Origin: Rhynchopus sp. YZ270_cl-10
Taxonomy: Eukaryota
Assembly: GCA_964035575.1 (NCBI GenBank)
Contig: OZ037846.1
Location: forward strand, 372,001 to 436,000
Direction: 5' to 3'
Length of the DNA stretch: 64,000 nucleotides
Each line of letters starts with the position of its first letter. Position 1 is the stretch's first letter. Shown here piece after piece: positions 23,000 through 47,454 of this stretch. Below the pieces are notes generated by a model. That model worked only from the letters and a program-made list of their open reading frames with translations. It made no database searches and had not been told where the DNA came from. Made by a program: the position numbers and the translations under genes.

Positions 23000-24709
23000 T
23001 CACACAAGAGACCACATAAGGAGGGAACCGTCGTGCCCGGCAGTGGCAAGAAGGTTGCTGTCGGGGGAGAACGACGCCTGAGCAACAACAGCGTCGAGGC
23101 CGGTGAGACGTGTGCGCACAGTGCCTGCTGCCGTCCACACGACGACCTCTGCAGTGCCTGCAGCAGCAAAGAGCTGCCCGTCTGCAGAGAGCGTAGCGTG
23201 GTGCAGCACGTGAGAGGGCATCGACACTGCTGCTGACACTGTCGCGACACCCACACCGACAGTCCCGCTTGCCCAACGCGTCATAAGGACAGCACCACTG
23301 TCCATCCCACGTAGCAGCTCACCGCCAGACAGGAATGCCACAGACACCACGCGCGCACCCTCAGAGGCAACAGTGCTTACCTTCGCACCTGTCGCAACGT
23401 CCCATATCTGCACAATCTCGTCCACCTCACTCCCCACCACAGTTGCCAGCAGACTTCCGTCAGGCGAAAACGCCACGTTGCGCGCATGCGCATGGATGAC
23501 AAGGTCCAAGGCACCGTCGTCTGCACGCACAACACGTGTGCTTGGCGCGTTCCCACCCCCACCCGCAAGCAGGCCACCCACACGTGAGTACGCGACCTTA
23601 CGTATCGGCGTGCTGCTGCTCCCCAGGTCGTGCAGGACGTACCGCAGTGCTCCTGTTGCCACATCGCACACCACAGCACGTCCACCCGCACCTGCAACAG
23701 CAACCGACAGTGCGTCCGGCGAGAACACAACGTCGTGCACGGCAAAGTCTGCACACGCAAGCTTCAGCGTCTGCGCGCCTGTCGCACTCTCAAACACACG
23801 CACGCCGTCGTCGCTGCCAGTGGCAAAGTGCATGCCGTCGCTCGAGAACGCAACAGAGAGCACCCTCGCATGGTGCTGCACCTTGAAGCGGCATGTGTCA
23901 GGCAGGCCCCGTGGGCACGTCGTCTTCATCGTGTCCTGCTCTGTGCATGAGGAAGGTGCGCTTGTCGGTGCTGACGTCGGCTGTGCTGGCACTAAAGTGG
24001 GAACAGGTGTCGGCACTGCAGTAGGCTGTGCTGTGGGAACAGAGGTTGGGGCAGCTGTTGTCACAGACGCACACCCTGTCGCTGTCGTGCCTGGTGCCCC
24101 GACGCTGGTCGCGAACTGCGACACAATGTTACCTGCCTCCTTATAAGCGCACATGAGGTGCGCGCGGCTGGAGGCGGCAGAGAGGCACAAACCACACCCG
24201 ACCTCGAGTGTCTCCTTCCACACCACCTGAGAGAAGATCAAGGCGGAGGAATTTTGCGAATTGTGACCGTAGTTGTAGCAGCCTTCCTGCGTGCAGTACC
24301 AGTCCTTCACACCCTCAGCCACGTCCCATCTTGTGACATCTCCACTAGGCACGACCACCGAGGCAAGGTGCTCACCGGGCGCTCTGTTGTACGTAGGGAC
24401 GTCTGTGTCGCAGGTGGTCTGGAAGCCAGAGCTCGAGCTGATATAGTCTGCCAGGGCAGTACTGTACGTCATCGGGCATGCACCGTGCTGTTCCCTGTAC
24501 AGGTTGTGCTGCTCAAGCACACGTGCCACCTGCCAGTTATGCAGCCGATTCGCGCAGTCAAAGACCCCTGGGCAAGACACGAGAAGGACAGGTGGTGCTG
24601 GAGACGGTGTGAAGGCACTGCACCACGACTGCTGCGAGGCACACTGCAAACCCGCAGTGGCACCTCTGCTGAGTGAGAGGGCCAAAAGCAGCACACACAG
24701 GGACCTCAT
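23000..24709 (-). CDS. Secreted CAP/SCP (PR-1-like) domain protein with P/T-rich linker and C-terminal WD40 repeats, 569 aa
   Basis: Signal peptide (MRSLCVLLLALSLSRGATA). CAP motifs HNLYREQHG, GEHLA, FSQVVWKET.EVGCG and CAY..AGN. PTxxPT linker. WD40-like repeats such as VLSVAFSSDGMHFATGSDDG, VAFSPDGSLLAT and SFSPDSNLLATAGHDGSLLMW. Confidence 0.85.
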   Translation of the reverse strand: MRSLCVLLLALSLSRGATAGLQCASQQSWCSAFTPSPAPPVLLVSCPGVFDCANRLHNWQVARVLEQHNLYREQHGACPMTYSTALADYISSSSGFQTTCDTDVPTYNRAPGEHLASVVVPSGDVTRWDVAEGVKDWYCTQEGCYNYGHNSQNSSALIFSQVVWKETLEVGCGLCLSAASSRAHLMCAYKEAGNIVSQFATSVGAPGTTATGCASVTTAAPTSVPTAQPTAVPTPVPTLVPAQPTSAPTSAPSSCTEQDTMKTTCPRGLPDTCRFKVQHHARVLSVAFSSDGMHFATGSDDGVRVFESATGAQTLKLACADFAVHDVVFSPDALSVAVAGAGGRAVVCDVATGALRYVLHDLGSSSTPIRKVAYSRVGGLLAGGGGNAPSTRVVRADDGALDLVIHAHARNVAFSPDGSLLATVVGSEVDEIVQIWDVATGAKVSTVASEGARVVSVAFLSGGELLRGMDSGAVLMTRWASGTVGVGVATVSAAVSMPSHVLHHATLSADGQLFAAAGTAEVVVWTAAGTVRTRLTGLDAVVAQASFSPDSNLLATAGHDGSLLMWSLV

Positions 24710-25188
24710 GGTTGATGTCTCTTTGGTTGTAAAGTAATCCTGTTGTGGGTGTGGATGTGAACGGCATGAAAAGCAGCTGTTTGGCTGTGTCTTTCGGGTT
24801 GCGGGAAGGGATATCTGAACAAATCGAGAATACGTGCAGAACGGGAAGGGGGTCTGTAAGAAAAAAAGTCATAAACTCTTGTTCATGTTCGTGTAGGAAT
24901 AGCAACAAAACTGTCGCTCTGTATATAAATATTATTTCATGCTTTTTGTCACTGGAGAGTCAAGGTTGTCCCGCTCACTGCTTCGAACACACGGTGACAC
25001 AGCTGTTGCCACGTTGCAAAGCCTCACACGCCCAACGTCTTCGAAGCGCAGCAGCAGTGACGTTGCACACAGCACTGTTCCGTGCAGAAACACAGAAATC
25101 CAGAGACTGATGCAGAGACGTGTCACAACGACGTCGTGCACTCTCGTTGGGTAAGTGCCAGATGTAAATCTGAGCAAACACAACAGTG

Positions 25189-26922
25189 CTACTTCACGGA
25201 ACAGATCTGAGAGCAACACACAACACTGCACGTCCCAGAAGGAACTGCGTGTGCTGGTGTGCCAACCCCTCCCGCAGCTGTCCATGCCTTGGCAACGTCA
25301 AGGTCAGACTGCCCACCGCGCAGGTACCCACGCACAGCAGTGTTGTACTCCTCCCAATGCTTCTTCCCACCTATCATGTACATCCACTCGTCAGCTGAAA
25401 CTGCCGTGTTCTCTTGTTTCGCAATCAGTTCCGCCACAACCTGTGCCTCACAGCCAGAAGCAACCTCCACCTTGCACGGAAGCAGACGCAGCTGGTGTTC
25501 GCACTCAGCATCGCTGAAGCACATCCTGTTGCACACCACATCACACCCCAGCATACGCCCCACACGTTCCAGACCGTTCACATCACGCACAAGCTCCCCT
25601 ACCATGCTGAACCGACGCATCACCTCGCAACCCATGTCACCACGCAGCACCTTCCCAGTCGCAACACCAGCATTCACCTTCTCACAAAAGCTGCTCGCAC
25701 CCTTCAGAAGCAGGCTTGCTGCATGCAGTGCAGATGTGGCATGTGTCGCACACTGCTTCGAGGCGTTGAACGAACAGTGGATCCTGTCCCCGATGAACAC
25801 GTCCACCATCCCACGTCTTGTCTCTGTTGCCTGCAGGGTCTTCAGGAGGAGAGTGGTGAAGAAAGAGGAGTAGGTCGCACTGTCCTTCTCCAGCAAATGC
25901 AGGGTGTTCTTCACGTTCAGTGTCAGCAGGGTTGTCATGACCGAGGACAGACCCAGTGGCAGGCACACTGGCATGGTCTCAAGTCTGCAATTAGAGGACT
26001 CTGTGGATGCGTCTGTTGTCTCTGTCAGGTCATCGTGCTCACTGCTCCCTGCGCATGTTCTCTCCACCTCATCCTGAAAAGGCAGACACGTCTTCGGGAG
26101 GTACGCTTTGTACATGCGCAGGTTCTTCTCCAGTCTCCACAGGGCAGCAGTCATCCCCTCAGGCAGGTCACCCCCATGCACGTCCAGCATCTCCGCCACC
26201 TGCTCCACGTCGTACCCCGCAAGAAGCGACGCAATCTCCTGCACAACGCTGATCGTGCGCCTCATTGACTCCTGCTCCTTCAGCACGTCGTGCGCAAACC
26301 TGCGTGTTACGAAGAAGTCGCTCACGAATACAAAAAGTGTGGCGATAAGGTCAAATGGGGGAAATGATGTCTTGCAGGGAAGGAACTCGCAGTCAGTTTT
26401 TTCACTCATGATCGATCTCCGGCTTTTGTGCTCACCTTCGTACGGCAACAACCCAGGAAGGTCAAACAAACCAAACCTGAAGCCTTCTTCACATGCCATC
26501 AGGAGAAGCCACACCACTGTCGCACCCACGAAACCTGCACTGTACCGTGATGGGACTTCCATCACAAGCAACATGTCCACAACCAGGATCAGAAGTGGCC
26601 AGCCAACAAAACCATAAGTACGTGCGTCCAAATCCCACAGGAAAATGCTCACGCTGAAAGAGTACAGGAAGCCCACCACAAATGTGGTGTGCAGTTGCTG
26701 CTTGCAGAGCACCTTAACAATGCCAACGCACCCGCTAAGAACAACGATAGTAGACCCAAGCACGTTCACTGTCTGTACCGTCACATCGTCCTGATGCATC
26801 ATAAATGCCAACACAGTCACGAGGACTGAAACCACACAGAACGCAAACATGATGGTACGCTTCTTCACCTCGTCAGCACTGAGCGACCCGTCAATGGTCA
26901 GTGCGCTGTTCAGGCACCGCAT
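25189..26922 (-). CDS. Multi-pass membrane protein with degenerate class III adenylate/guanylate cyclase-like domain, paralog 1
   Basis: Several N-terminal hydrophobic helices. Cyclase-like motifs LLTLNVKN, GMVDVFIGDRIHCSFN, AGVATGKVLRGDMG and FSMVGELV. First ATG is at 26922; the ORF track starts at a GTG 21 nt upstream. Confidence 0.8.
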   Translation of the reverse strand: MRCLNSALTIDGSLSADEVKKRTIMFAFCVVSVLVTVLAFMMHQDDVTVQTVNVLGSTIVVLSGCVGIVKVLCKQQLHTTFVVGFLYSFSVSIFLWDLDARTYGFVGWPLLILVVDMLLVMEVPSRYSAGFVGATVVWLLLMACEEGFRFGLFDLPGLLPYEGEHKSRRSIMSEKTDCEFLPCKTSFPPFDLIATLFVFVSDFFVTRRFAHDVLKEQESMRRTISVVQEIASLLAGYDVEQVAEMLDVHGGDLPEGMTAALWRLEKNLRMYKAYLPKTCLPFQDEVERTCAGSSEHDDLTETTDASTESSNCRLETMPVCLPLGLSSVMTTLLTLNVKNTLHLLEKDSATYSSFFTTLLLKTLQATETRRGMVDVFIGDRIHCSFNASKQCATHATSALHAASLLLKGASSFCEKVNAGVATGKVLRGDMGCEVMRRFSMVGELVRDVNGLERVGRMLGCDVVCNRMCFSDAECEHQLRLLPCKVEVASGCEAQVVAELIAKQENTAVSADEWMYMIGGKKHWEEYNTAVRGYLRGGQSDLDVAKAWTAAGGVGTPAHAVPSGTCSVVCCSQICSVK

Positions 26923-27453
26923 CGTTGGGCTTTTGATCCTCACAAACCTTTGCTATGTGTGGAGCAGGGGTGATGGATGGAATGTGCACTGGTGGGTGGC
27001 GTGAGGTTTTTCAAAATTTTCTTCCACAACACACGGTTCTTCTTTTCTACTTCATTATAAGACTGTGACGCGTTGCTGACGGCTTGCTTCATTACGCAAA
27101 GACTCAAGAACCTGAGGCCCTACAAGGAGGCGATCATAGGGTTCGTAGGAGGAAGGAGGCCTTCGTCGAGGTAGGTGTGCAGAACAGACACGTCGTTGAA
27201 AGCACATACAAGTGTCCGAGTGGCACAGCACCAAATACAACCCGGTGGTGCCAGGTTAATAACGACCCGCTTGTTCTTCCTCTGAGGGTCGGTCACCCAT
27301 CGGGGGGGGTGTGCAACATGTGGGGTGTTTTAAGAAGAATATTATTACGCGTCCACTCGACGTTTGGATAAAGAAAACGAGAGAAGAAAGGGGGTTTGGG
27401 GGGGGGAAGAGTTTAATTCTTGAACGCATCCCCACACTCAGTCACAGTTTTTC

Positions 27454-27488
<35 letters not shown>

Positions 27489-28042
27489 TGAAAAACACCA
27501 AAACGCTGTTCACAATAATGAACGATAATTTATGTGTGAGAGATGGGGAGCACGGGAGGGAAAAAACGACTCGTGGATACTGAAAAATTTCACTGGAAAT
27601 GCACACATTCAGGCCCTTAGGGTGGTACTTTTTGCTGGTCAGCGGACCAGCAACCTAGGTATTGCTGGTCCGGGTCTAAAAAAAAATAATAACAATAGAT
27701 TTTTTTTGAGATTTTTTTTTGAGAATCCCACCAGAACAGTCGGGTGTGTCACAGATGCAGAGACCCTGGGGGCTCAAGGGTACACCGTGGGAGACCAGAA
27801 CGCGACTCAATTGGTCAAACGCCGAAGGAAAAGGAAGCATGGATGCAGCATGGCGAAATATTGTTTCATATACTAACTATTCTACTGAATAGATGGTATA
27901 ATAGGGTGCACTAAATGTACCCAAACTTTTTTTTTTTACTTTATGTGGATTGTTTGTTTCTGATAGTGACGTGACTCGTTTTTTTATGTTTTTTTTTTGG
28001 AAAAGAAAGTTTCATGTACCCATTAATAAAAGTCCGTGAGGT

Positions 28043-28196
28043 TACAGCCAGTAAAATTTACCTCTTAAAAATAGCATTATCCTCGTTGGTACGGATTATA
28101 TGGGCTGACAATAAAAAGGAGATGGATACAGCCAGTACATTTTACCTCTCCATTAAATGTAGCATTATCCATATAAATACAGATTCTGGGCTGACA
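28043..28196 (-). repeat. Two diverged tandem copies (28043-28110 and 28127-28196) of a ~70-nt putative structured RNA motif
   Basis: Conserved minus-strand blocks UGUCAGCCCA, AAUCYGUA, GGAUAAUGCUA, AGAGGUAAA and UACUGGCUGUA, with variable loops between them. CAGCC/GGCUG closing stem and AUCY/GGAU hairpin in both copies. Confidence 0.6.
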
Positions 28197-28205
28197 CTCG
28201 TTTTA

Positions 28206-28278
28206 GTGGTTTCGAGCTGCCTGCTCCTAGACCACCTCGACAAAAACCCTGCGGCAGCAAACTCATCAGTAGGAGCAA
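28206..28278 (-). ncRNA. Hammerhead ribozyme-like motif (complete core, atypical strand order) downstream of the RT ORF
   Basis: Minus strand: UGCUCCUA-CUGAUGA-GUUUGCUGCC...GGUGGUC^UAGGAGCA-GGCAGCUC-GAAACCACU. Stem I is 8 bp. Stem III is ACCAC/GUGGU. Stem II is G-C plus GCUGCC/GGCAGC. GUC cleavage triplet present. Hammerheads are characteristic of Penelope-like elements. Confidence 0.65.
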
Positions 28279-28642
28279 GGGTTTAAAATATTGAGAGAAA
28301 CACAAACACGAGTTGGGAGGGATGGGAGGGATGGGGGTGAGGCGGGATGTTTGGACTATAGTTTTATCAAATTGACTTCTTCTTTGTTTTTCCAGGTTTT
28401 TTTTGGGGAAAAAGCAATGTTCTCTTTTTTTTTGTTTATTGATATTGTCCACAATATAACCAGTAATTCTCGAGACAATATCCTGTTTTTTTTGTTTTGT
28501 TTTGAAAAGCAAATAAAATCTTTTATTTTTTTTTATTTTTTTTTTTTTTTGAACGCTCTAAAATAAAAGTAAAAAGCTGTGAGATATTTCCCTGGGCTTC
28601 GTAGCTCGCCGCCCTAGCTGTAGTCTAACATATAGTTAGCTA

Positions 28643-31600
28643 CTATTTAATAGCGTCGAACACATGGATACCATGTGCCGAAAGCATGTGTCGTCCAATA
28701 TTTTTTTTTGTAATTTTTCTTCCGTCCCCTAGTTTAGTTTTGTTACATACCGGGCATTTTCCTTCAATGAGGTCTTCTTTTTTATACGTTTTTATTGTTG
28801 TTTGATTCTCTGTGTATTGAACGGGAAATGTTGGAAAGGTATTTTTTTGTTCTTGTAAAACAAGTGCTCTTAGTTCTTTGTCTGTTTTTTGTTTCTTCAG
28901 GTATCGTAGTGCAATGTTAGTAAAAACTTTTTTTTTTCTTTGTAAAAGGTCATCTTGTTGTTGGTCATAATGGTGTATGCTTTTTTTTGTAAAGTTGTAT
29001 AGTTTATACCCTACATCACTAAAGTGACGATAGGTTGTAGTAAAAAATTTACTAGCTGCTTGTATAAGGTATTTTCTTTGATGACCTCGTAATAGCATGT
29101 ACTTCATGATGTTGGCGATATCAAATTTTAGGTCCTCGATGTTGTTATTTATTCTTGTACTTCTCGTTAATTGTCCAATTACAATGCCTTTGGTGATGTG
29201 TAGTGGTTGTGCAGAGTTTGCAGCAGAGTATTTAATAGGTTTAAAAGAACCAAGTTGTTTCTCTTGTGTACCTATTCTTAGTATTTTCACTTCATCATCT
29301 TCGTCATTGTATGTTTCTATACTTATGAGAATACCGAGATACACGGTAGGTTCATCTACACATGTTTGACAGTACTCCATTTCGTATAGGCTTTGTGGTG
29401 GTGGTTCACCGGAAAAGGTTAGAAAATCATCAATATAGCGCGTAAGGTGGCGATATTTTTGTGCTTCTTCTATCTTTTTTTGTGCAATTAAATCTAAAAT
29501 AAAAGTCTTTTCAATTTGGAGGCAAAACGCGTTGGCAATATCAGGGGCAGCAGTACAGCCCATAGGAATTCCTTTGGTCTGTCTATACCACTCCTGTTTT
29601 TGCACATACGCAAAGTCTAAAACAAAGTGAATCATGTCTACAAGTTGTTCTTTTGTAAAAAATTGTTCTCCATCTTTGATATTCTTTTTTTCTTCAAAGA
29701 AAAAAGGTCTTTTTCTATCTCCTTTCCCAGACCTTACAAGAATAATTTCTTCTATGTTTGTTTTTTTTTTCCCGGCCACCCATAAAAAGGTATCGTTGAT
29801 CAGTTGTTTTAGTTCTTTTTTCAATTTTGTATGGCTGAGGTTAGTGTACATATTTTTAAAATCAAAAGTTTTTGGGTTCAATTGACTCAGTTCTTTTTGT
29901 CGTTGTTTCAGTCGAAGTGCTACTTCTTCTGAACTTTCGACAATAAAGAACCATGAGACTCTATGTTGTTCTATGGTCTCTTCGTTGATAGTTTTGTTTT
30001 TTGCAATAATAGTTTTGAGCATAACACTCAGAGTTTGTTGTGCGTGAGTCATGCAGTGGTGGTTCTTTTTTTTTTCATCTTCTTCATTTAATGGGCATTC
30101 TATAGTATTCCTATAGGTAGTACCCACTATAGGTCTCATGCTAACTGGGTTTTTGTGTAGTTTGACTGTTGCATAAAGGTATGGTAAAACGAAAGTGGTT
30201 TTGAATTTGTTTTTTTTGTTGAACATAATTATGTCCTTTACTATATCTTCTTGTGACGTCTGAATTTTTTGAAATGCATTCTCGATATGGTTGTTGAGGT
30301 ATTCGTGATATGCGTATTTACAAATGATTCCGAGGTCATGTGAGGTTTTATCCACTGGAACTATGATAAAGTCTTGCTGCAGTTTTTTTATTTCTCGGCG
30401 TACTACCTTTAGATTTTGTAGATCTGTAGGTGGTAAGTCTTTACAAATGGTGTTCATCATTTCTTGGTTAAGAATCTCTAAAAAATCTTTGTTTTCTTTT
30501 TTTTCCAAAGAGCCACAGTTTTTTCTAACGTACAGTATACAAGCTTGTTCAATTGCATCCATCATCTCTAGCTGGTTATCCTCAATTCTATACTTTCTAC
30601 CCATCTGGAATAGTATTTTGAGTTCCTTAGAAATGAAAGTTGCATTTTTTGCAAGCTCGCATGCATGTCCGTTAAATGTAAAACTAGTTTTTTCTTTGGT
30701 TTGAAAGCATGGGCAGACATGTTGGTCTTCTTTTTTTTTAAAAATATCACAGCTCTCTTTGGTGAAATTACAAAAAATGGTACCTATAGGTTTTTTAAGC
30801 CTGTAGGTAACTCTTGGTTTCTCGAGTATCTCTTTTTTTGGGCACGCTTGAATAATGTGCTGCTTTCTAAAAACTTGGGCAATGTTGTTTTGGTTAAAAC
30901 CTCTGTTGTTGAACTCTATTATGAATTTTGAGCTCGCAATATATTGTTTTCTTTTTGTTTTGATATCTTCAATTTTTATTTCGTTTATTCTTTGTGTGAT
31001 CTTCTTCTCTAGTATTTTTACCTTTTCTGTATACAAATTCCCCACCAGATATATTCTCATCCATTTTTTTGTTCTCATGCACCAATTTTTTGACCACGTA
31101 ACAACAGAGTATTTTTTCAAATCTTGTTTTGTTTTGTTTAAAAGTGAATTGAGTTTTGATCTTATGCCATAGTATCTGTTTTGTTTTGTTTCTTTTTTTA
31201 TATTGATCTGGACTTCACCGTCTTCAATTTTAGCCCAAATTGGAGGTGTGAAATCTTCTTCTTTGTTTCTCCAATTATTTCTTTTGTTTGGGGGGGGTCT
31301 TTTTTGTTTTCTGTTTGGTCTTTGTCTTTTTTTGTTGCGTCTAGGGATATCTGCTTCAGTAAGCGGTGGTTGTGCTTTATTACATTTCAATTTGAAATGT
31401 TTAATCCATGTGCCTTCTGCGACATCCGCGCTTCGTTGAAAATCTTTTGCATTCGTATAAGTATGAGAGGGTATTACCTCCAACACCGCCGGATACAATG
31501 GTCTTCTTCTTTCTTTTAAAAAGTATGCAATACGCATTGTTTTGTACTTGTATTTGCATTGCTCAAAATGTTGTTTTGCACGCTCTTGTGCTGTACAGGA

Positions 31601-32629
31601 GGTTTTTCCTACATATACAGGTGATCCTTTTTCATCCACGAGACAATATATAACACCATGAGTGTCTATTGATTTGTTTTGAGTATCGGTAAGTTTTCTT
31701 TTTGCAAGACCTTTTTTTATCGCATCTTTGTTTTTTTCGTAAAATAGGGTTCGTACTTGATCTCCTTCTTTTCTCCATTGATCGACATCAATTGTCCATG
31801 ATTTTTGTTCATCGGCAATCTGTTGTCTTATTTTTTTTAAAAAAGGCTCAAGCTGTATTCTTTGAAATTCTTCTTCCATTTTTAGTATTTGTTTTTTTTG
31901 TATTTTTTGCTCGTCTGCTTTTTTTATGATATGATGGAGTCTTTGTTTATTTTCAACAAGTTGTTCTCTTTGTTCTTTTTTTTTGGCTTGTAAACGTGCT
32001 AAACTCACTGTATGTCTTACATTTAACATATTCATTTCGAAAAGATGTTCTTCTTCTTCTTTTTTAGCTTGTTGTTTACACCATGATATTTCGCTTTGTA
32101 GCTCTATATTTTTGTTTTTTTGTTCTTCAATTTCTTTTTTCCAATGTTCGTATTGTCTAGCGTGTCTATTGTACATATTTATTGTTCTTGTAGTTATTCT
32201 CTGGCTCAAAGTATAGCTATGTCTTAGATGATTCGCTTGACGTCGATACGATTCAGCTCGTCTCTCACTTCTTCTTAAAGATGTACTGAGTTGTTCATAT
32301 GACATTGGAGGGTTAGACTGTACGGAAGAAAATTCCGTAGTTGTAGCGCTAAAGGGGGTAGGAGGAAGGGGAATCTCGTGGGGGAGGGGAGGTGGCGTTC
32401 GGGGTGGGGAGTCACTATCATGCGAGTTAGGGGGTTGTGTATCATGGTTTGTAGTAAAAGTTGAACCGGCCGTTGACGATGGCGCCGAGTTCTCGCCCTC
32501 GGTTTTTCCAAAAGTAGGTAGTAGATTTTTACAGGTCAATAAGACTCCCCAGGCCTTATCAACCTGGCTCGCTTTTTTTTTATAGAATGCACTGAGCTGC
32601 TTCTGGTAGGCTTTTCCGTTGCATACCAT
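28643..32629 (-). CDS. Penelope-like element polyprotein (Naiad/Chlamys type): coiled coil, N-terminal GIY-YIG endonuclease, reverse transcriptase, C-terminal C2H2-like finger, about 1328 aa
   Basis: GIY-YIG motif GVIYCL...VYVGKT...ERAKQH precedes the RT. Naiad-like linker CPC...GHA...GRKYR and VPVDK....ICK..Y. RT motifs KLHKNPVSMRPIV, FDFKNMYTNL, YRQTKGIPMG..AAPDIAN and RYIDD. C-terminal CPVC...HMLSAH. First ATG is 32629; the frame stays open to about 32752. Confidence 0.92.
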   Translation of the reverse strand: MVCNGKAYQKQLSAFYKKKASQVDKAWGVLLTCKNLLPTFGKTEGENSAPSSTAGSTFTTNHDTQPPNSHDSDSPPRTPPPLPHEIPLPPTPFSATTTEFSSVQSNPPMSYEQLSTSLRRSERRAESYRRQANHLRHSYTLSQRITTRTINMYNRHARQYEHWKKEIEEQKNKNIELQSEISWCKQQAKKEEEEHLFEMNMLNVRHTVSLARLQAKKKEQREQLVENKQRLHHIIKKADEQKIQKKQILKMEEEFQRIQLEPFLKKIRQQIADEQKSWTIDVDQWRKEGDQVRTLFYEKNKDAIKKGLAKRKLTDTQNKSIDTHGVIYCLVDEKGSPVYVGKTSCTAQERAKQHFEQCKYKYKTMRIAYFLKERRRPLYPAVLEVIPSHTYTNAKDFQRSADVAEGTWIKHFKLKCNKAQPPLTEADIPRRNKKRQRPNRKQKRPPPNKRNNWRNKEEDFTPPIWAKIEDGEVQINIKKETKQNRYYGIRSKLNSLLNKTKQDLKKYSVVTWSKNWCMRTKKWMRIYLVGNLYTEKVKILEKKITQRINEIKIEDIKTKRKQYIASSKFIIEFNNRGFNQNNIAQVFRKQHIIQACPKKEILEKPRVTYRLKKPIGTIFCNFTKESCDIFKKKEDQHVCPCFQTKEKTSFTFNGHACELAKNATFISKELKILFQMGRKYRIEDNQLEMMDAIEQACILYVRKNCGSLEKKENKDFLEILNQEMMNTICKDLPPTDLQNLKVVRREIKKLQQDFIIVPVDKTSHDLGIICKYAYHEYLNNHIENAFQKIQTSQEDIVKDIIMFNKKNKFKTTFVLPYLYATVKLHKNPVSMRPIVGTTYRNTIECPLNEEDEKKKNHHCMTHAQQTLSVMLKTIIAKNKTINEETIEQHRVSWFFIVESSEEVALRLKQRQKELSQLNPKTFDFKNMYTNLSHTKLKKELKQLINDTFLWVAGKKKTNIEEIILVRSGKGDRKRPFFFEEKKNIKDGEQFFTKEQLVDMIHFVLDFAYVQKQEWYRQTKGIPMGCTAAPDIANAFCLQIEKTFILDLIAQKKIEEAQKYRHLTRYIDDFLTFSGEPPPQSLYEMEYCQTCVDEPTVYLGILISIETYNDEDDEVKILRIGTQEKQLGSFKPIKYSAANSAQPLHITKGIVIGQLTRSTRINNNIEDLKFDIANIMKYMLLRGHQRKYLIQAASKFFTTTYRHFSDVGYKLYNFTKKSIHHYDQQQDDLLQRKKKVFTNIALRYLKKQKTDKELRALVLQEQKNTFPTFPVQYTENQTTIKTYKKEDLIEGKCPVCNKTKLGDGRKITKKNIGRHMLSAHGIHVFDAIK

Positions 32630-33659
32630 AAACGGACACACTTTTTTTTTGGTGGTTACAGTGTCATTAACCCGCTTTAAATAACCTACTTGCTCACCCT
32701 TGTTATTTCTATCATTTTTTTGTTGTCTCTTTTTTTGCTTTTTTGTTTTGTTTTACTTTTTCTTTTTTTTTTACTTCTTCCTTCTTTTTGAAAATACTCC
32801 GTGCAAAACTGACAGTACTGCTGTCTTGTCAGCTGCGAAATAAAAAAAAATAGCGTACCGTACGCCTGCGGCGCAATCTTGCCAACCCACCTTCCTATGA
32901 CATAGTTTGACAGTTAAAATGTGCCATTTTAAGGGAATTTTTTTGAAATCTTGCGTACCGTGGTTTCGCCTGGAACCTTTGGGTGCCATGACCGCCGCTT
33001 CTTTTATAGATGTACTGAGGTTACTGATAAGAAGGCTGACACCCACTACGGCTCGCGGTTCACCCTCCCCACCCGCCTTTCACGATTTTGTGCATCAGAG
33101 GGGAGAAAGCGCGTCACCTCCCTGCAGTGGCAGGGAGTCTTTTTTTACCACTGTGTGCTTTTCACCTGTTTTTTGCATTGACCAGCAAACCGGGTTTGGA
33201 CCAGCAGTTGGCGGCTACCCCCCTGACCACCCTAAGGCCCTGGCACACATGTCTTATAAAAACATAAAAAGTGAATTTCATAACCACACCAAAACCATAC
33301 CAAAATAAAAATAAAAATGCAGGAGGTCACTGTCCAATGCATAGCTTCGACAGCGACACTCCGGCGGCGCGAAAGACGCCCCCTCATCACCCCCCACAAG
33401 AAAAAGTCTAGGGTACTGTAGACACGCAACACAGATTCTGAAGCTCAAAGAACCAACGACTCTATAATATTCGACTCACACACTTCGCTGCACATTCGCT
33501 AGATGTGACACTGTACACCTGTTGCTTGGTGTTGAATAACGTCGCCTTTGTGCTGCAGAAACACAGAAACACAGAGACTGATGCAGAGATGTATCACAAC
33601 GACGTCGTGCACTCTCGTTGGGTAAGTGCCAGATGTAAATCTGAGCAAACACAACAGTG

Positions 33660-35396
33660 CTACTTCACGGAACACATCTGAGAGCAACACACAACACTGC
33701 ACGTCCCAGAAGGAACTGCGTGTGCTGGTGTGCCAACCCCTCCCGCAGCTGTCCATGCCTCAGCAACATCAAGGTCAGACTGCTCACCACGCAGGTACCC
33801 ACGCACGGCAATGTTGTACTCCTCCCAATGCTTCTCCCCACCTATCATGTACATCCACTCGTCAACTGCTTCTTCTGCATCACTCAACTGAGACATCACT
33901 TCCGCCACAACCTGTGCCTCACAACCAGAGGCAACCTCCACCTTGCACGGAAGCAGACGCAGCTGGTGTTCGCACTCAGCATCGCTGAAGCATATCCTGT
34001 TGCACACCACATCACACCCCAGCATACGCCCCACACGTTCCAGACCGTTCACATCACGCACAAGCTCCCCCACCATGCTGAACCGACGCATCACCTCACA
34101 ACCCATGTCACCACGCAGCACCTTCCCAGTCGCAACACCAGCATTCACCTTCTCACAAAAGCTGCTCGCACCCTTCAGAAGCAGGCTTGCTGCATGCAGT
34201 GCAGATGTGGCATGTGTCGCACACTGCTTCGAGGCGTTGAACGAACAGTGGATCCTGTCCCCGATGAACACGTCCACCATCCCACGTCTTGTCTCTGTTG
34301 CCTGCAGGGTCTTCAGGAGGAGAGTGGTGAAGAAAGAGGAGTAGGTCGCACTGTCCTTCTCCAGCAAATGCAGGGTGTTCTTCACGTTCAGTGTCAGCAG
34401 GGTTGTCATGACCGAGGACAGACCCAGTGGCAGGCACACTGGCATGGTCTCAAGTCTGCAATTAGAGGACTCTGTGGATGCGTCTGTTGTCTCTGTCAGG
34501 TCATCGTGCTCACTGCTCCCTGCGCATGTTCTCTCCACCTCATCCTGAAAAGGCAGACACGTCTTCGGGAGGTACGCTTTGTACATGCGCAGGTTCTTCT
34601 CCAGTCTCCACAAGGCAGCAGTCATCCCCTCAGGCAGGTCACCCCCATGCACGTCCAGCATCTCCGCCACCTGCTCCACGTCGTACCCCGCAAGAAGCGA
34701 CGCAATCTCCTGCACAACGCTGATCGTGCGCCTCATTGACTCCTGCTCCTTCAGCAAATTGTGCGCAAACCTGCGTGTCACGAAGAAGTCGATCAGGAAG
34801 ACAGCAAGAGTGGAAGTCAAGTTAATTGGGGGAAATGGTGTCTTGCAGGGCAAGAACTCACAGTTTACCCTTTCTGTAACAACCGCTCTCCTGCTGTGTT
34901 CACCTTCGTACGGCAACAACCCAGGAAGGTCAAACAAACCAAACCTGAAGGATTCCTCACATGCCATCAGGAGAAGCCACACCATTGTCGCACCCACGAA
35001 ACCTGCACTGTACCGTGATGGGACTTGCATCACAAGCAACATGTCCACAACCACGATGAGAAGTGGCCAGCCAACAAAACCATAAGTACGTGCATCCAAA
35101 TCCCACATGAAGATTCCAATGCCAGCGATGTACATAACGCCCACCACAAACGTGGTGTGCAGTTGCTGCTTGCAGAGCACCTTAACAATGGGAACAGACG
35201 CAACTGTAACGACTATGCAAGATCCGAGCTCGTTAACTATCCGGTATTGCACGTCGGTCCTCCCCTGATGAAAAACAGAAAAAGCCAGGGTAGATACTAC
35301 TGAAACCACACAGAACACAAACATGATGGTGCGCTTCTTCACCTCGTCAGCACTGAGAGACCCGTCAATGGTCAGTGCGCTGTTCAGGCACCGCAT
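33660..35396 (-). CDS. Multi-pass membrane cyclase-like protein, paralog 2
   Basis: Same architecture and near-identical cyclase-like domain to paralog 1. ATG at 35396. Confidence 0.8.
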   Translation of the reverse strand: MRCLNSALTIDGSLSADEVKKRTIMFVFCVVSVVSTLAFSVFHQGRTDVQYRIVNELGSCIVVTVASVPIVKVLCKQQLHTTFVVGVMYIAGIGIFMWDLDARTYGFVGWPLLIVVVDMLLVMQVPSRYSAGFVGATMVWLLLMACEESFRFGLFDLPGLLPYEGEHSRRAVVTERVNCEFLPCKTPFPPINLTSTLAVFLIDFFVTRRFAHNLLKEQESMRRTISVVQEIASLLAGYDVEQVAEMLDVHGGDLPEGMTAALWRLEKNLRMYKAYLPKTCLPFQDEVERTCAGSSEHDDLTETTDASTESSNCRLETMPVCLPLGLSSVMTTLLTLNVKNTLHLLEKDSATYSSFFTTLLLKTLQATETRRGMVDVFIGDRIHCSFNASKQCATHATSALHAASLLLKGASSFCEKVNAGVATGKVLRGDMGCEVMRRFSMVGELVRDVNGLERVGRMLGCDVVCNRICFSDAECEHQLRLLPCKVEVASGCEAQVVAEVMSQLSDAEEAVDEWMYMIGGEKHWEEYNIAVRGYLRGEQSDLDVAEAWTAAGGVGTPAHAVPSGTCSVVCCSQMCSVK

Positions 35397-35906
35397 CGTT
35401 GGGCTTTTGATCCTCACAAACCTTTGCTATGTGTGGAGCAGGGGTGTGTGGATGTGTGTTGTGTGCACTGGTGGGTGGTGTGGTTAATGTCAGGTTAATA
35501 ACGATAGGCAATTCTCCTCTTGCTGCTCCTCTGAGGACCCACGACACCACATGCCAGCGTGATGTGGTAAAAACGATGACATGTACCACATATCACGACA
35601 TGTGAAATGACATGTACCACAGGTCATTATGACATGCTAGCTCACACATCATTGTGGCACGATACTGACATGAGGGGTGCACTTTAGAACACGGAGGGGG
35701 GCTGGGACAAAAATATGGGGAAGACTGCTGCCTCTTTTTGAGAATCTGTTGGATGATGTGCTGCTTACGACGCAAAAGGCGTCACTTTCCAAAATATTGG
35801 TTTTACAGCAACACCCCGGCGGCACTAGAGCCACCCCCCTCACCACCCCACAAGAAAAAGGCTAGTATACTCTACACTCATTCCCCCCCCCTCTGCTTCC
35901 AACACA

Positions 35907-37841: not shown

Positions 37842-39587
37842 CTACTTCACGGAACACATCTGAGAACAACACACAACACTGCACGTCCCGGAAGGAACTG
37901 CGTGTGCTGGTGTGCCAACCCCTCCCGCAGCTGTCCATGCCTCAGCAACGTCAAGGTCAGACTGCTCACCAAGTAGGTACCCACGCACGGCAGTGTTGTA
38001 CTCCTCCCAATGCTTCTTCCCACCTATCATGTACATCCACTCGTCAGCTGAAACTGCTGTGTCCTCTTGTTTTGCAATAAGTTCCGCCACAACCTGTGCC
38101 TCACAACCAGAGGCAACCTCCACCTTGCACGGAAGCAGACGCAGCTGGTGTTCGCACTCAGCATCGCTGAAGCACATCCTGTTGCACACCACATCACATC
38201 CCAGCATACGCCCCACACGTTCCAGCCCGTTCACATCACGCACAAGCTCCCCCACCATGCTGAACCGACGCATCACCTCACAACCCATGTCACCACGCAG
38301 CACCTTCCCAGTCGCAACACCAGCATTCACCTTCTCACAAAAGCTGCTCGCACCCTTCAGAAGCAGGCTTGCTGCGTGCAGTGCAGATGTGGCATGTGTC
38401 GCACACTGCTTCGAGGCGTTGAACGAACAGTGGATCCTGTCCCCGATGAACACGTCCACCATCCCACGTCTTGTCTCTGTTGCCTGCAGGGTCTTCAGGA
38501 GGAGAGTGGTGAAGAAGGAGGAGTAGGTCGCACTGTCCTTCTCCAGCAAATGCAGGGTGTCCTTCACGTTCAGTGTCAGCAGGGTTGTCTTGACCGAGGA
38601 CAGACCCAGTGGCAGGCACACTGGCATGGTCTCATTTCTCGAATGTGAGGACTCTGTGGATGTGTCTGTTATCTCTGTCACATCTCCGTCGTGTTCACCC
38701 CCGTCGCTCTCTGAGTCCACCTTCTCCACCTCATCCTGAAAAGGCAGACACGTCTTCGGGAGGTACGCTTTGTACATGCGCAGGTTCTTCTCCAGTCTCC
38801 ACAGGGCAGCAGTCATCCCCTCAGGCAGGTCACCCCCATGCACGTCCAGCATCTCCGCCACCTGCTCCACGTCGTACCCCGCAAGAAGCGACGCAATCTC
38901 CTGCACAACGCTGATCGTGCGTCTCATTGACTCCTGTTCCTTCAGCACGTTGTGTGCAAACCTGCGTGTCACGAAGAAGTCGATCAGGAAGACAAAAAGT
39001 GTGGAAGCGAAGCCAAGTGGGGGAAATGACGTCTTGCAGGGAAGGAACTCGCAGTCTATCTTTTCCAGAATCAACGCTCTCCTGCTGTGTTCACCTTCGT
39101 GCGGTGGCAACCCAGGAAGGTCAAACAAACCAAACCTGAAGGATTCCTCACACCCTATGAGAAACAACCACACCACTGTTGCACCCACGAACCATGCACT
39201 GTACCGTGATGGGACTTCCATCACAAGCAACATGTCCACAACCAGGATCAGCATTGGCCAGCTCATTAAACCATAAGTGCGTGCGACTAAATCCCACATA
39301 AAAATTGCAATGCCAGCGATGTACATGATGCCCACCACAAACGTGGTGTGCAGTTTCTGCTTGCAGAGCAGCTTAACAATGGCAACAAACCCCGTTGTAA
39401 GGACTATGCAAGACGCGAATACGTTAACAATCCGGTGTTGCACGTTGGTACTCCCCTTGTGAGAAACAAAAACAACCAGAATCGCAAATACTGAAACCAC
39501 ACAGAACACAAACATGATGGTGCGCTTCTTCACCTCGTCAGCACTGAGAGACCCGTCAATGGTCAGTGCGCTGTTCAGGCACCGCAT
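37842..39587 (-). CDS. Multi-pass membrane cyclase-like protein, paralog 3
   Basis: Same architecture as paralogs 1 and 2, with shared 5' flank (cacatagcaaaggtttgtgAGgatc...ATG). ATG at 39587. Confidence 0.8.
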   Translation of the reverse strand: MRCLNSALTIDGSLSADEVKKRTIMFVFCVVSVFAILVVFVSHKGSTNVQHRIVNVFASCIVLTTGFVAIVKLLCKQKLHTTFVVGIMYIAGIAIFMWDLVARTYGLMSWPMLILVVDMLLVMEVPSRYSAWFVGATVVWLFLIGCEESFRFGLFDLPGLPPHEGEHSRRALILEKIDCEFLPCKTSFPPLGFASTLFVFLIDFFVTRRFAHNVLKEQESMRRTISVVQEIASLLAGYDVEQVAEMLDVHGGDLPEGMTAALWRLEKNLRMYKAYLPKTCLPFQDEVEKVDSESDGGEHDGDVTEITDTSTESSHSRNETMPVCLPLGLSSVKTTLLTLNVKDTLHLLEKDSATYSSFFTTLLLKTLQATETRRGMVDVFIGDRIHCSFNASKQCATHATSALHAASLLLKGASSFCEKVNAGVATGKVLRGDMGCEVMRRFSMVGELVRDVNGLERVGRMLGCDVVCNRMCFSDAECEHQLRLLPCKVEVASGCEAQVVAELIAKQEDTAVSADEWMYMIGGKKHWEEYNTAVRGYLLGEQSDLDVAEAWTAAGGVGTPAHAVPSGTCSVVCCSQMCSVK

Positions 39588-40959
39588 CGTTGGGCTTTTG
39601 ATCCTCACAAACCTTTGCTATGTGTGGAGCAGGGGTGTGTGGATGTGTCTTGTGTGCACTGGTGGGTGGTGTGGTTAATGTTAGGTTAATAACGGTGCTG
39701 CAACCCAAACAGACGTGCCTTCTACCAGAGACCTATAGTGATATATGCATTGGCTACTGATCACGACATGGACGTGAGGGACCTGCTGCTTAATTGGCAC
39801 CGTCGCATCTTCACCGAGGTGAGAAGTGGCGACACCCGCTTGAACATTGTCAACGCTGCAGCGGGCGAGGTTTCGCAAGGAGTGGCATTGCAACAACAAT
39901 GTGTGAACCGTTTTCACGTACCCCATATGTTGGCTATCTGGAGCCGCATGGTTGTGGTGTAAGGGTTACCTGCGATGCAGAAGACGGTGCGAGGCAAAAT
40001 GTCCAGGATGTTGGAAGGGAGTGAAGTTGGTGGGGTCGCGTACTTATTACGGCCCGCGGGAAAATAAAATAAAATGGACACGTTCCCTAAGGCCATCGCA
40101 GATCGTGTGAACGAGGAGGAGAACAAACCCAACATGCGGCGCGTGTACACGGCACAGGAGGTTAGGCAGGTGTACGATTATGGTCGTCAGGATGGGGCAG
40201 CGATCGCAGCCAGAAAGTAAGCGCAGGGGCAATCTCTGCCCAATGTAAAAAGGCCGAGGGCCAACACACAACACCGAGACAAATACCAGAAACCCTTCCC
40301 ACTCACCTTAGATAATATTTTTTTGGGAAAAGTCACTTAGTGCCCAAGTTTGTTGTACCCATTTAGGATAATACCCAGTGGGTATTATCCTAAATTATTT
40401 GGGTATTATCCTAAATTATTTTGGGTATTATCCTAAATTATTTTTGGGTACTGGGTACTGGGTACTGGGTACTGGGTACTGGGTACTGGGTACTGGGTAC
40501 TGGGTACTGGGTACTGGGTACTGGGTACTGGGTACTGGGTACTGGGTACTGGGTACTGGGTACTGGGTACTGGGTACTGGGTACCCAGAACGAAGGCACC
40601 TTGACAGCAGCGAAGGCAAGACAAGGTATGTACCGGGTAAATACGTAACTTTCTGGTGAATATTCAACAAAATAATTGCGCTTTCTTCGCCCCAAGGTGT
40701 GGCAGAGCCTACTGACTCTGGGCTGACGACAAAAGGGGACATGCCCCCCCCCCCCCGTTTTTTTGTAGTGGAACATTTCACAACGACGTTTCACAACCAC
40801 ACAACCATCACAGGATTGTGAGATCTGAACTGCATGCACAATTGCGATGAGAACCTTAGCCGGTCACAAGAAACTGAAATGGTATGACATTCACCCTCTA
40901 CCTCCCCCCCCACAGTTACTTTTAGTTGAGCCTTTTAATTAGTATTTTTTTAAAAAATA

Positions 40960-44805: not shown

Positions 44806-47454
44806 GTATTTCCTCCAAAAAGTCTCCAGAACAATATTTTAAACCCTCAAGCCAACTTATTTTTTTAAGAAGTCACCTTCTTTAATTTCCCCACCACTCA
44901 CAACTTCACTTTTAAACAGGTATCGCGAGTGCAGCATCGAGAACCAACTGTGCAGAACGAGCGCATATGCGGTGGAAAGGGTGGTGGGAACACTCTGTCA
45001 GTCACTGCTATAGCCATTTAACCCAGGGAGCATAGCTAGTGCAAGAAATTCGACTTTGGAAACCTTCCGGAAAGTCTGTCCTCTGCTTACGGAGGACGAG
45101 GCACAAGAAAATATTGCGTTCCCCCAGAAAACCAGTGCACAATTCACACTCCTTGTGGGTGGTCTTGTTGCCTTTTTGTCACAGTAATTTTGGCCCAGGC
45201 ATGCTCTTGAAGCATGACAATTTAGTGTGTATGGGGCAGGGTGTTGTTTTGTTCTGAATTCTCTTTGTTATAACATCTAAGTCAATCGCGGGTGGTGGTT
45301 TGTGTAGCGTGAGGCACTCTTTTTAATAAACTTCCTGCAGTTGCTATGCACTGTTATTTCTTCGGATTTATCATCATACAGCGTAACATAGTGGATTCGC
45401 CTGGTCGACACAACCTTTGATAGATACGGGATAACCAACCCCCTTCGACCCCTTGTGGGTTCACTGAACAAGCCCTAGTGGTAGTTAAACGCGATTGACA
45501 TTTACATTCCTAGAGATGAAAGAACAAGATAACACTTCTGTACCCGCGCATCAAAATTGTGGAAAACTTTGCACCCCAAACACCCTCAACAACGCCCGCC
45601 AAAAGGCGCCCCTTGTTGCTGGGAGTTGGTTCTCATGATACCTGCACAGCGGGCATTCCTCTGAGTCCAACGCATGTTTGGCCTGTCTGCGGCGTTGTAC
45701 TTAAGGTGCACGAAGACTGGGTCTGGTGGTAAATTTTGCGTAGTACTGCGACGTGGTACTGCGTGGGTCTGGGAATTTGGGTACCTGGGTACGGGAAATT
45801 TGTTGTGGAAGACATCAACCACCATGCATTGAGGAGGGTAAGACAGTGTTCGCAGTTTCTACCTGATAGCATTACAACATTTAACTTCTCCACGGGGGTC
45901 TTGGGCCGTTCACTCGGTTCTACCTTGACTACCGGAAGATATTCTTGAGGCCTTTTTGGTCTCTAGAATATCCGGTCTTCCCGAACGGAGGCACACTTTG
46001 TGTGTTACTACGACCTGGCAATTTCCAGCAGTAGGTTAAGTAATCTTTCTTGTAAATTGTTGGATCATTATCTCCTCAGTGCATGAATGCCCCACGTGAC
46101 TGGACACTTTTGTGTTTGTCATGTGGAGCTGTGGTTGCTCTTTCACGACTTTTTTCCTGTTCCTGGGTACCTGTTCTTGGACCTGGACCTGGGTACCTGG
46201 GTACCTGGGTACCTGGGTACCTGGGTACCTGGGTACCTGGGTACCTGGGTACCTGGGTACCTGGGTACCTGGGTACCTGGGTACCTGGGTACCTGGGTAC
46301 CTGGGTACCTGGGTACCTGGGTACCTGGGTACCTGGGTACCTGGGTACCTGGGTACCTGGGTACCTGGGTACCTGGGTACCTGGGTACCTGGGTACCTGG
46401 GTACCCAGTACCCAGTACCCAAAAATAATTTAGGATAATACCCAAAATAATTTAGGATAATACCCAAATAATTTAGGATAATACCCAAATAATTTAGGAT
46501 AATACCCACTGGGTATTATCCTAAATGGGTACTAGAAACTTGGGTACTAGCCTAATTACCCCTATTTTTTTCTTCAAAAATTATTACGCGTCCACTCGAC
46601 GTTTGGATAAAGAAAACTAGAGATGAAAGGGGGTGTGTGTGTGTGTGATGGGGAGCACGGGAAGGGGAAAACGACTCGTGGATACTGAAAAATTTCGCTA
46701 GAAATGCAGATATGCCTTGCAAAATATTAATTACGTCGCACACTACTTACGTCGCGTACAAATTAAGTCGGCATTTGCCCTAACCGACTAAATTAGTACG
46801 CGACGGAATGTTCAACTCACCTCACAAAACTCACAGCTTAGTGCAGGGCCCATTCAATAAGGATACCCGACTTGAACTTCGTGTGAGACCATCAGAAAGG
46901 TGCAGACCCTCTACTCTACCGCCAACGTGGGTTATTGACGCAACATGAGACAAACGTCTACACACTGTGTGGAAGCTGGCGAATGCGCTGGCAAGCCAAA
47001 TGGTCGACACTCCTTCGTTCGTGCCAAGAGGACCACAACTCATTGAATATCCCTCGTCTGACATGACATCCATAACAGGAGCAAGAGCAATAAAAAAACA
47101 AGCAATCAGCGTAGCAGTGATCAACAAACTGAATCGAGACGTCGATTTGTGCACGATCTTGACTAAAGGGGGGGCCCAAATAAGTTTACCCCCAAATAAT
47201 AGCTATTTTCCCAAATAACTTTTTTTTTTCTCAGATTTTGGGTGCCGAAAAAGTTACCGAATAACTTCGCCCCCTCTCACCTCCTTTTTTATTTTTCAAA
47301 AATTTCCCCCAAACTGATAGTGTACTATATAAAATGGCGCCGCAGGCGAAAAAATTTTATGGTACGGTGTAAAAAGCTAGTTTTTTACACCACAGATATA
47401 ATCATCTAGGCGGCAGCCACGCTGGAGAAGGAAGTCTGGGGCGAAACAGATTTA

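Follow-up and report, generated by a model that had tools for sequence, protein, structure and literature searches.

A Penelope-like retroelement with an intact ORF, a dispersed repeat (repeat R) and a hAT-type shell lie one inside the other, from innermost to outermost, in the window (the entire 64,000-nt stretch of DNA that we analysed), and each duplication is a layer's own. We read these three layers as nested insertions, in which the intact retroelement would have entered an A-run by target-primed reverse transcription and the loaded shell would later have spread with it as cargo; to this account as a whole we assign a probability of about 0.5. Nesting with an independent origin of the retroelement is very probable, and it is slightly favoured that a hAT transposase made elsewhere afterwards copied the loaded shell to a few sites, with the retroelement as its passive cargo. 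Nesting itself is ordinary; should the loaded shell prove multi-copy, a retroelement that is usually truncated would be kept at full length and spread by a DNA transposon. Among the records listed in our literature searches there was no Penelope-in-hAT case like this one. The features are listed in Table 1.

Table 1. Features of the nested element, with positions in the window
Feature	Position	Strand	Details
Outer target-site duplication, left copy, GCACACAT	27601..27608	+	Supported by empty sites
Left TIR of non-autonomous hAT-type shell	27610..27626	+	16/17 match to right TIR
Three GACCAGCA subterminal motifs, left end	27633..27670		27633-40 (-), 27645-52 (+), 27663-70 (-)
Repeat R, left piece, split by retroelement	27795..27860		Left limit approximate; depth rise, loose ends at 27795, 27841, 27858
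Inner 8-bp duplication GCGAAATA, retroelement 3' side	27853..27860	+	Likely target-site duplication
Retroelement 3' terminus, two hairpins	27860..27925	-	Depth peak, loose ends, fold
Retroelement, Chlamys-type Penelope-like by sequence	27861..32834	-	4,974 bp, no pLTR
Two ~72-bp repeats, 84-bp spacing	28040..28196	-	28040-28110, 28124-28196; 75% alike
Candidate type-CSG non-circularly permuted hammerhead, 3' UTR of retroelement	28206..28284	- (sense)	
Hammerhead interaction helix	28284-78 with 28250-44		7 Watson-Crick pairs
Hammerhead stem I	28277-70 with 28229-22		8 bp
Hammerhead CUGAUGA	28269-63		
Hammerhead stem II			1 bp, internal loop, 6 bp
Hammerhead stem III	28235-31 with 28210-06		5 bp
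Hammerhead GUC	between 28230 and 28229		Predicted cut
Hammerhead GAAA	28213-10		
Single ORF	28643..32752	-	1,369 codons stop to stop; first ATG 32629, 1,328 aa from ATG
C-terminal Cx2Cx18Hx4H finger	28673..28756	-	Also in relative P0015 (68% identical)
RT core	29405..30352	-	DKT, motif A FDF, motif B GIPMG, YIDD
CxC linker motif	30707..30715	-	CPC at aa 680
N-terminal GIY-YIG endonuclease without CCHH	31391..31657	-	PF01541, E 2.6e-7, above cut-off
Inner duplication GCGAAATA, retroelement 5' side	32835..32842	+	Followed by target A-run
Repeat R, right piece	32843..33140		Further copies 56770-56876, 59951-60131
Two GACCAGCA subterminal motifs, right end	33180..33206	+	33180-87, 33199-206
Right TIR	33226..33242	-	Pairs with left TIR, 16/17
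Outer target-site duplication, right copy, GCACACAT	33243..33250	+	
Paralogous empty site of flanking repeat	46638..46724	+	Single octamer 46706-46713

The outer features of the original prediction were all recovered, namely a CAG-initiated 17-bp TIR pair, GACCAGCA subterminal motifs, an 8-bp GCACACAT duplication with one extra T on the left, and an in-window paralogous empty site near 46700. Both TIRs begin with CAG, the surplus T stands at 27609, between the left GCACACAT and the left TIR, and the five GACCAGCA motifs of the 64 kb all lie at most 63 bp from the shell ends. At the empty site, the alignment passes straight over the insertion junction and the octamer, GCAGATAT, is present in one copy; additionally, six contigs of sequencing run X5, among the matches listed, exit the window after 27608 into the letters of the right flank. 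Scanning 22635-64000 for an identical 8-mer with an inverted pair matching at 15/17 positions or better gave 11 distinct pairs, the other 10 of which lie within long inverted duplicates or simple repeats, and no such pair arose in 20 shuffled sequences. The TIR pattern had no matches in viral contigs. Short TIRs, an 8-bp duplication and subterminal repeats are described as hAT features (PMC4890040), and by these the shell is a non-autonomous hAT-type element. Minus the retroelement it measures 651 bp and is without a transposase, and a family scan detected no hAT transposase in the long RT ORF, in the eight long ORFs of the window that were scanned or in nine short ones; as no transposase was seen, the superfamily is read from end features only. 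In common with non-autonomous hAT elements and hAT-type MITEs, as far as the available text of PMC4890040 describes them, the shell has short TIRs that open with CAG, subterminal motifs repeated near each end, an 8-bp duplication and several insertion sites; unlike them, it carries a 5-kb cargo that is an entire retroelement, and most of its interior consists of an unrelated high-copy repeat.

That part of the shell is a dispersed repeat had been proposed, and copies of repeat R were indeed found at 56770-56860 and 59951-60131, the left piece giving an 11-bp match within the copy at 56.9 kb. Unsplit R was seen in public contigs, where loose ends after 27841 (of 19 X4 and 14 X5 contigs) continue into the A-run and AGCGTAC, equivalent to window positions 32843-32857, and where R carries a single copy of GCGAAATA. 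The retroelement, which had been thought to have no separate target-site duplication, is in fact flanked by GCGAAATA on both sides, although the final A of the copy at 27853-27860 may belong to the retroelement. It is because this duplication is the retroelement's own and splits repeat R at an A-run that we consider nesting so probable; the exact insertion point within the hAT-type non-autonomous element, one of the two arrangements first envisaged, is thus located. The reported lack of a pLTR-type direct repeat was borne out, the best direct alignment between the two ends of the retroelement being a T-run only, and as a result this copy may lack a promoter. As a candidate tRNA/SINE or structured RNA, repeat R was rejected (no tRNA; fold z -0.25).

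Public contigs of four runs (X1, X4, X5 and X6) were compared over 27010-28500, those listed being 32 of 8,308 pieces and 24 of 672 loose ends. All four runs had a sharp depth edge at 27856-27864 followed by an inward taper, summed X4 depth falling from 2.4 million at 27860-27909 to ~3,000 at 28310-28459. The segment 27860-27925 is common to very many short copies with A-rich flanks, and ahead of 27856-27864 the loose ends are rich in A and diverse, with 13-36 contigs at each listed place (agreement 0.40-0.50). The taper is what 5'-truncated copies with plentiful 3' ends would give, and together with the varied flanks it speaks for independent spread. We consider it less likely that 27860-27925 is a SINE or Helentron-type element in its own right on the plus strand, as depth tapers inward from a single sharp edge. 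Specific targeting of the MITE, suggested earlier, is unsupported because the 3' end adjoins many different A-rich flanks, here the A-run of a high-copy repeat. Mechanistically, the GIY-YIG endonuclease would nick A-tracts and the nicked strand would prime on the U-rich RNA end; entry into repeat R probably proceeded by target-primed reverse transcription at its A-run. All four runs have G at 28311, differing from the window, and an extra C after 27653 is a further such difference.

The only long ORF encodes a Penelope-like RT, in line with the original prediction, and has in order a coiled-coil-like N-terminus, GIY-YIG, a KR-rich block, CxC, RT and a C2H2-type finger. A Pfam scan of the N-terminal 293 aa was blank. 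No cysteine pair lies between the GIY and YIG motifs, and the candidate catalytic R, H, E and N, read by eye, are kept. An RVT_1 match at 29405-29668 (E 9.6e-5, below Pfam's cut-off) is in the same frame as the GIY-YIG domain, DKT stands at aa 801, and RT motifs A and B are 99 residues apart compared with 84-87 in three CCHH-type relatives, a comparison that excludes canonical Penelope-like elements (PLEs). At E≤0.001 there were 1,173 relatives, the nearest named ones being Diplonema papillatum proteins (31-36% identity). A PDB search with the RT profile gave no informative match, and the RT alignment yielded 49 pattern stretches in viral contigs and 32 in prokaryote genomes, with no confirmed locus in either. 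In a FastTree tree of the window RT and 45 of 117 matches, with CCHH labels from our own pattern and published Chlamys elements outside the tree, the window RT fell on the no-CCHH side and the CCHH-type matches formed a separate branch (local support 99); the program warned of long branches near the window row. Judged from its sequence, with an N-terminal GIY-YIG without CCHH, CxC, DKT and RT, the retroelement is a Chlamys-type PLE, a group described by Craig et al. (2021; PMC8557442). In the available text of that paper, such elements likewise lack CCHH or an upstream Zn finger at their N-terminal GIY-YIG, and have a CxC linker, DK with a variable third residue, a long A-to-B spacing (the insertion-in-fingers domain), accessory C-terminal domains, lengths of 3.3-8.2 kb, simple-repeat targets, frequent 5' truncation and plentiful 3' ends. 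Differences are that targets here are A/T-runs rather than (CA)n or (C)n, that ~320 residues precede the endonuclease, that this copy is without a pLTR and sits inside TIRs, that it has a candidate permuted hammerhead where canonical hammerheads are reported from two groups only, and that the D. papillatum lineage of its nearest relatives is not among the hosts named there. A pLTR or partial tandem is 'often' present in Chlamys PLEs and as such is not demanded of every insertion (PMC8557442). Naiad PLEs share the N-terminal endonuclease, CxC and KR-rich block, but carry CCHH within GIY-YIG and DKA, both missing here (PMC8557442).

With respect to the copying of the loaded shell, the left TIR end is multi-copy, with a depth like that of the retroelement 3' interior. 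A 206-nt contig of X6 stops within 1 base of 27610, instead of ~30 bases into the flank, at a depth of 17.7 compared with 2-5 for neighbouring locus-specific contigs, and one run showed several flanks for this end. Contig depth, which is no copy number, was 2,295 at the TIR end (27687) vs 2,199 in the interior for X4 (unique left flank 393), 893 vs 1,029-1,054 for X5 (108), 17.7 vs 15.7, 10.1 and 7.6 for X6, and 316 vs 543-566 for X1 (6), whose pattern differs from the other three; at 27653, X4 reached 6,720 (five overlapping contigs), at most threefold the interior. Under the reading that we prefer, a trans-acting hAT transposase from elsewhere would bind the GACCAGCA motifs and copy the loaded shell, with the retroelement as passive cargo, to a few sites. 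It is nevertheless quite possible, if less probable, that the composite is unique, the shell having come first and the retroelement later, with several copies of the TIR family and, separately, of the retroelement subfamily. Nested insertions are common in this repeat-dense window, the retroelement moves on its own, with a preference for the kind of A-run that the shell contains, and interior depth declines in X6 and in X4 (3,550 to 2,199) as separate truncated retrocopies would; no contig among the matches listed bridges 27813-27899, leaving the TIR end and the retroelement unlinked outside the window. Set against such a one-off event, the TIR end and near-identical interior agree within about twofold at one or more positions in all four runs, and depth along the interior is level in X5 (1,029 vs 1,054) and X1 (543 vs 566). 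Of the chance nesting that had been named as the refuting case, half is borne out, in that retroelement 3' ends occur outside the TIR family; on the uniqueness of the composite the contig depths are ambiguous, passive co-mobilization being about as probable as not.

The depth parity of TIR end and interior, together with an intact ORF within well-kept TIRs and no pLTR, would also suit an evolved class I/class II hybrid, a lineage that depends on, or aims at, hAT ends, perhaps via a BED-like C-terminal finger, whose Cx2Cx18Hx4H resembles the BED pattern Cx2CxnHx3-5H given in PMC4890040. We regard this as very improbable: the endonuclease looks intact, very many 3' ends have other flanks, the shell encodes nothing, and zf-BED had no match in the finger at E≤0.05. 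Furthermore, P0015 shares the finger and another relative, P0025, ends with a C2H2 finger, which suggests that such fingers are characteristic of the retroelement clade. The hybrid as one functional unit, raised in the original prediction, is unsupported, given that the retroelement carries an endonuclease and a duplication of its own and that members of its family occur outside the TIRs. Least probable of all is that the extra copies reflect segmental duplication or a collapsed assembly, the TIRs and duplication being old or accidental. The window does differ from the runs at a few fixed places, as given above, and its region has tandem gene paralogs and a 20-kb satellite, but depth is low in the unique left flank and higher in the element, the X6 contig stops at the first base of the TIR, the empty sites fit the duplication exactly, and shuffling produced no TIR-plus-duplication pair.

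A feature missed in the first reading is the hammerhead motif of the 3' UTR, where a complete type-CSG fold is present as a candidate ribozyme with predicted self-cleavage. The CSG pattern (CUGAnGA, GAAA, UH core, order C-S-G, stems I-III) matched once in total over the two strands of the window and never in 40 shuffles. Elsewhere it matched 16 metagenome and 4 viral stretches, none of them among the published CSG contigs; all 20 had a stem I of 0-2 bp and no RT nearby and were dismissed as chance, and no homologues were found in metagenome or viral contigs. Rfam searches over 22000-64000 and 27600-28700 gave no hammerhead match and nothing convincing, the ~72-bp repeats included; as twister ribozymes these repeats were rejected, the twister motif order not fitting. 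The minimum-energy fold was no better than shuffles (z 0.56) and gives no support, as expected for a pseudoknotted hammerhead order. In the available text of Eckert et al. (2023; PMC10085705), the type-CSG form is published from two similar metagenomic sequences only, the validated CSG-1 and CSG-2. The candidate has their strand order (interaction, stem I, CUGAUGA, stem II, interaction, stem III, UC, stem I, stem II, GAAA, stem III), four helices and 15 nt from cut site to CGAAA, and a single compensated pair sets its stem III apart from theirs. Unlike those sequences, which are metagenomic DNA without a known organism, it lies in a eukaryotic retroelement 3' UTR, with an internal loop in stem II and a stem II-III linker of 17 nt compared with ≤10 nt in the published descriptor. 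The transcript may self-cleave here, the type-CSG hammerhead taking the role of the canonical hammerheads of other PLEs, which Chlamys and Naiad elements mostly lack (PMC8557442). It would be a bolder and rather doubtful proposal that full-length coding copies spread mainly inside hAT ends by cut-and-paste, and short copies in their thousands by retrotransposition, as a single stable element with both classes of mobility, the CSG hammerhead being the RNA-processing ribozyme that PLEs with an N-terminal endonuclease have seemed to lack. In the available text of the literature searched, including a 2026 retrozyme preprint, no report tied a type-CSG hammerhead to Chlamys-type elements; the sense strand of an intact, putatively Chlamys-type element would thus give this ribozyme form a biological setting. 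Of the variants listed for 28206-28284, all lie at 28236-28260, in the linker, interaction helix and bulge, and none touches the core or stems I and III.

Our analysis of the locus identified a real three-layer nested insertion, in which a hAT-type shell encloses a dispersed repeat, R, and R is in turn split by an intact Chlamys-type Penelope-like retroelement with a duplication of its own. The shell is classed as hAT-type by its ends only. Here the original prediction of a CAG-initiated 17-bp TIR pair, subterminal motifs and an 8-bp duplication with one extra T on the left was borne out: the TIRs agree at 16 of 17 bases, and each of the five occurrences of GACCAGCA in the 64-kb window falls at one or other end of the shell. 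A TIR-plus-octamer scan of 22635–64000 returned 11 distinct pairs, of which 10 sit within long inverted duplicates or simple repeats; 20 shuffles scanned likewise gave no pair. The empty site anticipated near 46700 was also recovered, as this paralog aligns through the junction with a single octamer; six contigs from public sequencing run X5 agree, exiting the window behind 27608 and reading right-flank letters. The insertion measures 5,642 bp including one duplication, against the ∼5.6 kb predicted. No transposase match was found in the long ORF or the nine short ORFs scanned. A high-copy repeat also served as the outer target (27338–27608 and 46577–46724); its summed depth is > 100,000 in run X4.

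Features of the insertion and its surroundings
Feature	Position	Strand	Description
Satellite	2427–22634		49.5 near-identical 408-bp units, 99 % matches
CAP/WD40 ORF	23000–24868	−	CAP domain, then WD40 repeats
∼590-codon paralogs	25192–26952; 33663–35426; 37845–39617	−	DNA 89–92 % alike
Outer duplication	27601–27608; 33243–33250		GCACACAT, flanking the TIRs; one extra T at 27609
Left TIR	27610–27626		Starts CAG
Right TIR	33226–33242		Starts CAG
Inner duplication	27853–27860; 32835–32842		GCGAAATA; right copy followed by A-run
Retroelement	27861–32834		Bounded by inner duplication
Candidate hammerhead	28284–28206	− (ORF sense strand)	360 bases after stop codon
Long ORF	28643–32752	−	Single; 1,369 codons open
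Putative MULE-type ORF	40954–43959	+	1,001 codons; fragments at 44492–44957 and 60509–60639
Inverted repeat pair	44965–46354/50093–51518		Finishes in 8-bp tandem arrays
Inverted repeat pair	47712–47991/48405–48685		

No pLTR-type repeat was found at the retroelement, as already noted, but the accompanying claim that it lacks a separate TSD did not hold. GCGAAATA flanks it on both sides, and elsewhere R is unsplit across the insertion site and holds this octamer once: contigs exiting behind 27841 (19 in X4, 14 in X5) match 27846–27860 and continue into an A-run plus AGCGTAC, as in 32843–32857, and thus R is continuous elsewhere. In an R copy within the window (56876–56770), the left piece is represented by 11 bp and the right piece by about 105 bp; the junction itself is absent. 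Together, the flanking octamers and unsplit R set the limits of the retroelement, leaving a shell of 651 bp, and uphold the suggestion that the retroelement inserted into a hAT-type element.

The long ORF is, as predicted, that of a Penelope-like RT. Searched uncut, its protein matched no Pfam family; cut into parts, it gave a GIY-YIG match above the cut-off (E = 2.6 × 10−7) and, downstream, an RVT_1 match below it (E = 9.6 × 10−5). The protein has CxC (residue 680), DKT (residue 801) and YIDD motifs, with RT motifs A and B separated by 99 residues; its GIY-YIG motif contains no cysteine pair. GIY-YIG upstream of the RT, the missing cysteine pair, CxC, DKT and the A–B spacing are shared with Chlamys elements as described in the available text of PMC8557442, and we therefore call the retroelement Chlamys-type. 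A word-indexed protein search found 13 relatives (22–30 %) among 7,992 candidates, and a full scan 1,173 at E ≤ 0.001, with P0015 (68 %) first among the best 150; in the best 10, all four named relatives are Diplonema papillatum proteins (31–36 %). In an RT tree of the window and 45 of 117 hits, labelled by our own pattern, without published reference rows and subject to a long-branch warning, one branch (local support 99) separates 11 CCHH-type rows from 14 without CCHH, the window RT lying on the latter side. Five relatives (P0017–P0020 and P0034) have a C-terminal ubiquitin hydrolase (UCH) match, above the cut-off in four; in one cluster, the Diplonema members bear the host annotation 'Ubiquitin carboxyl-terminal hydrolase 26'. 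The passages of PMC8557442 consulted make no mention of a UCH accessory domain.

To judge by its 3′-end copies, the retroelement moves alone. Loose ends, where contigs leave the window, are many and A-rich before 27856–27864 (13–36 contigs per listed place, agreement 0.40–0.50), and short copies finish in A-runs behind 27922–27925. Summed depth peaks at 27860–27909 in all four runs and tapers inward, in X4 from 2.4 million through 620,000 and 55,000 to about 3,000; this is the 3′-heavy, 5′-truncated pattern described for Penelope-like/Chlamys elements. Priming would be by target-primed reverse transcription, an established mechanism. Its preference looks like one for A/T-tracts in general, not for the shell, contrary to the proposal that it may target the hAT MITE. 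Given the retroelement's own duplication and its 3′-end copies with other flanks, the locus is not an obligate class I/II hybrid. That it has evolved into such a hybrid is improbable: a C-terminal finger has BED-like spacing (pattern from the available text of PMC4890040), but gives no zf-BED match in Pfam with the ORF in parts and is common to P0015.

The loaded shell has possibly been amplified as passive cargo. Record 29 of run X6 spans 27610–27813 at depth 17.7, beside locus-specific contigs at 2–5, and its end lies no more than one base from the start of the TIR. With a single flank the contig would continue for about 30 bases more, which makes several flanks likely for the left end. TIR-end and interior depths are alike in X4 (2,295 vs 2,199 for the near-identical 3′ interior; unique flank 393), X5 (893 vs 1,029–1,054; flank 108), X6 (17.7 vs 15.7, 10.1 and 7.6) and X1 (316 vs 543–566; flank 6), a comparison that covers 27010–28500 in 4 of 11 runs and in which contig depth is not copy number. 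These depths count against one-off nesting, in which the composite moved no further after the retroelement entered the shell. Against amplification of the loaded shell, X4 reaches 6,720 at 27653; interior depth falls along X4 and X6; X1 is uneven; and, among the pieces listed (32 of 8,308) and the loose ends listed (24 of 672), no contig crosses 27813–27899. X1 and X4 belong to one study, and any of the runs may be related to the source of the window. On balance, we consider passive co-mobilisation slightly likelier than one-off nesting.

The most interesting part of the locus is a candidate type-CSG hammerhead ribozyme. Its order is a 7-nt interaction strand, stem I strand, CUGAUGA, stem II strand, interaction partner, linker, stem III strand, GUC, stem I partner, stem II partner, GAAA and stem III partner, with 8 Watson–Crick pairs in stem I, 7 in the interaction helix, 5 in stem III and 1 + 6 around an internal loop in stem II. 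CSG-1 and CSG-2, two similar sequences from metagenomes for which cleavage has been demonstrated (available text of PMC10085705), follow the same order. A descriptor for the C–S–G order matched once over both window strands, against no match in 40 shuffles. Of the 20 pattern-only matches from metagenome and viral contigs, every one had a stem I of just 0–2 bp. Rfam models and minimum-energy folding gave the candidate no support. Among the variants listed, with 146 rows beyond the listing, those in the motif fall only at 28236–28260, clear of the core and of stems I and III, and some affect the interaction helix, with no compensating change among them. Contig joints in X1, X4 and X5 link the 3′ terminal region to 28205–28207, the motif edge, which suggests that shorter relatives retain the motif whole. 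Our literature searches showed no published link between type-CSG hammerheads and Chlamys-type elements, including in passages of bioRxiv 10.64898/2026.07.22.740005, whose supplements could bear on this. Two ∼72-bp repeats adjoin the hammerhead (28040–28196), with common motifs, possible stems and no convincing Rfam match; an X1 relative retains the GGGCTGAC motif beside the hammerhead.

The insertion sits between the first two ∼590-codon paralogs, all three of which lack a convincing Pfam family. The putative MULE-type ORF has MULE transposase and SWIM matches, both below the cut-off. The two long inverted repeat pairs (95–97 %) are likely further foldback-type DNA elements.
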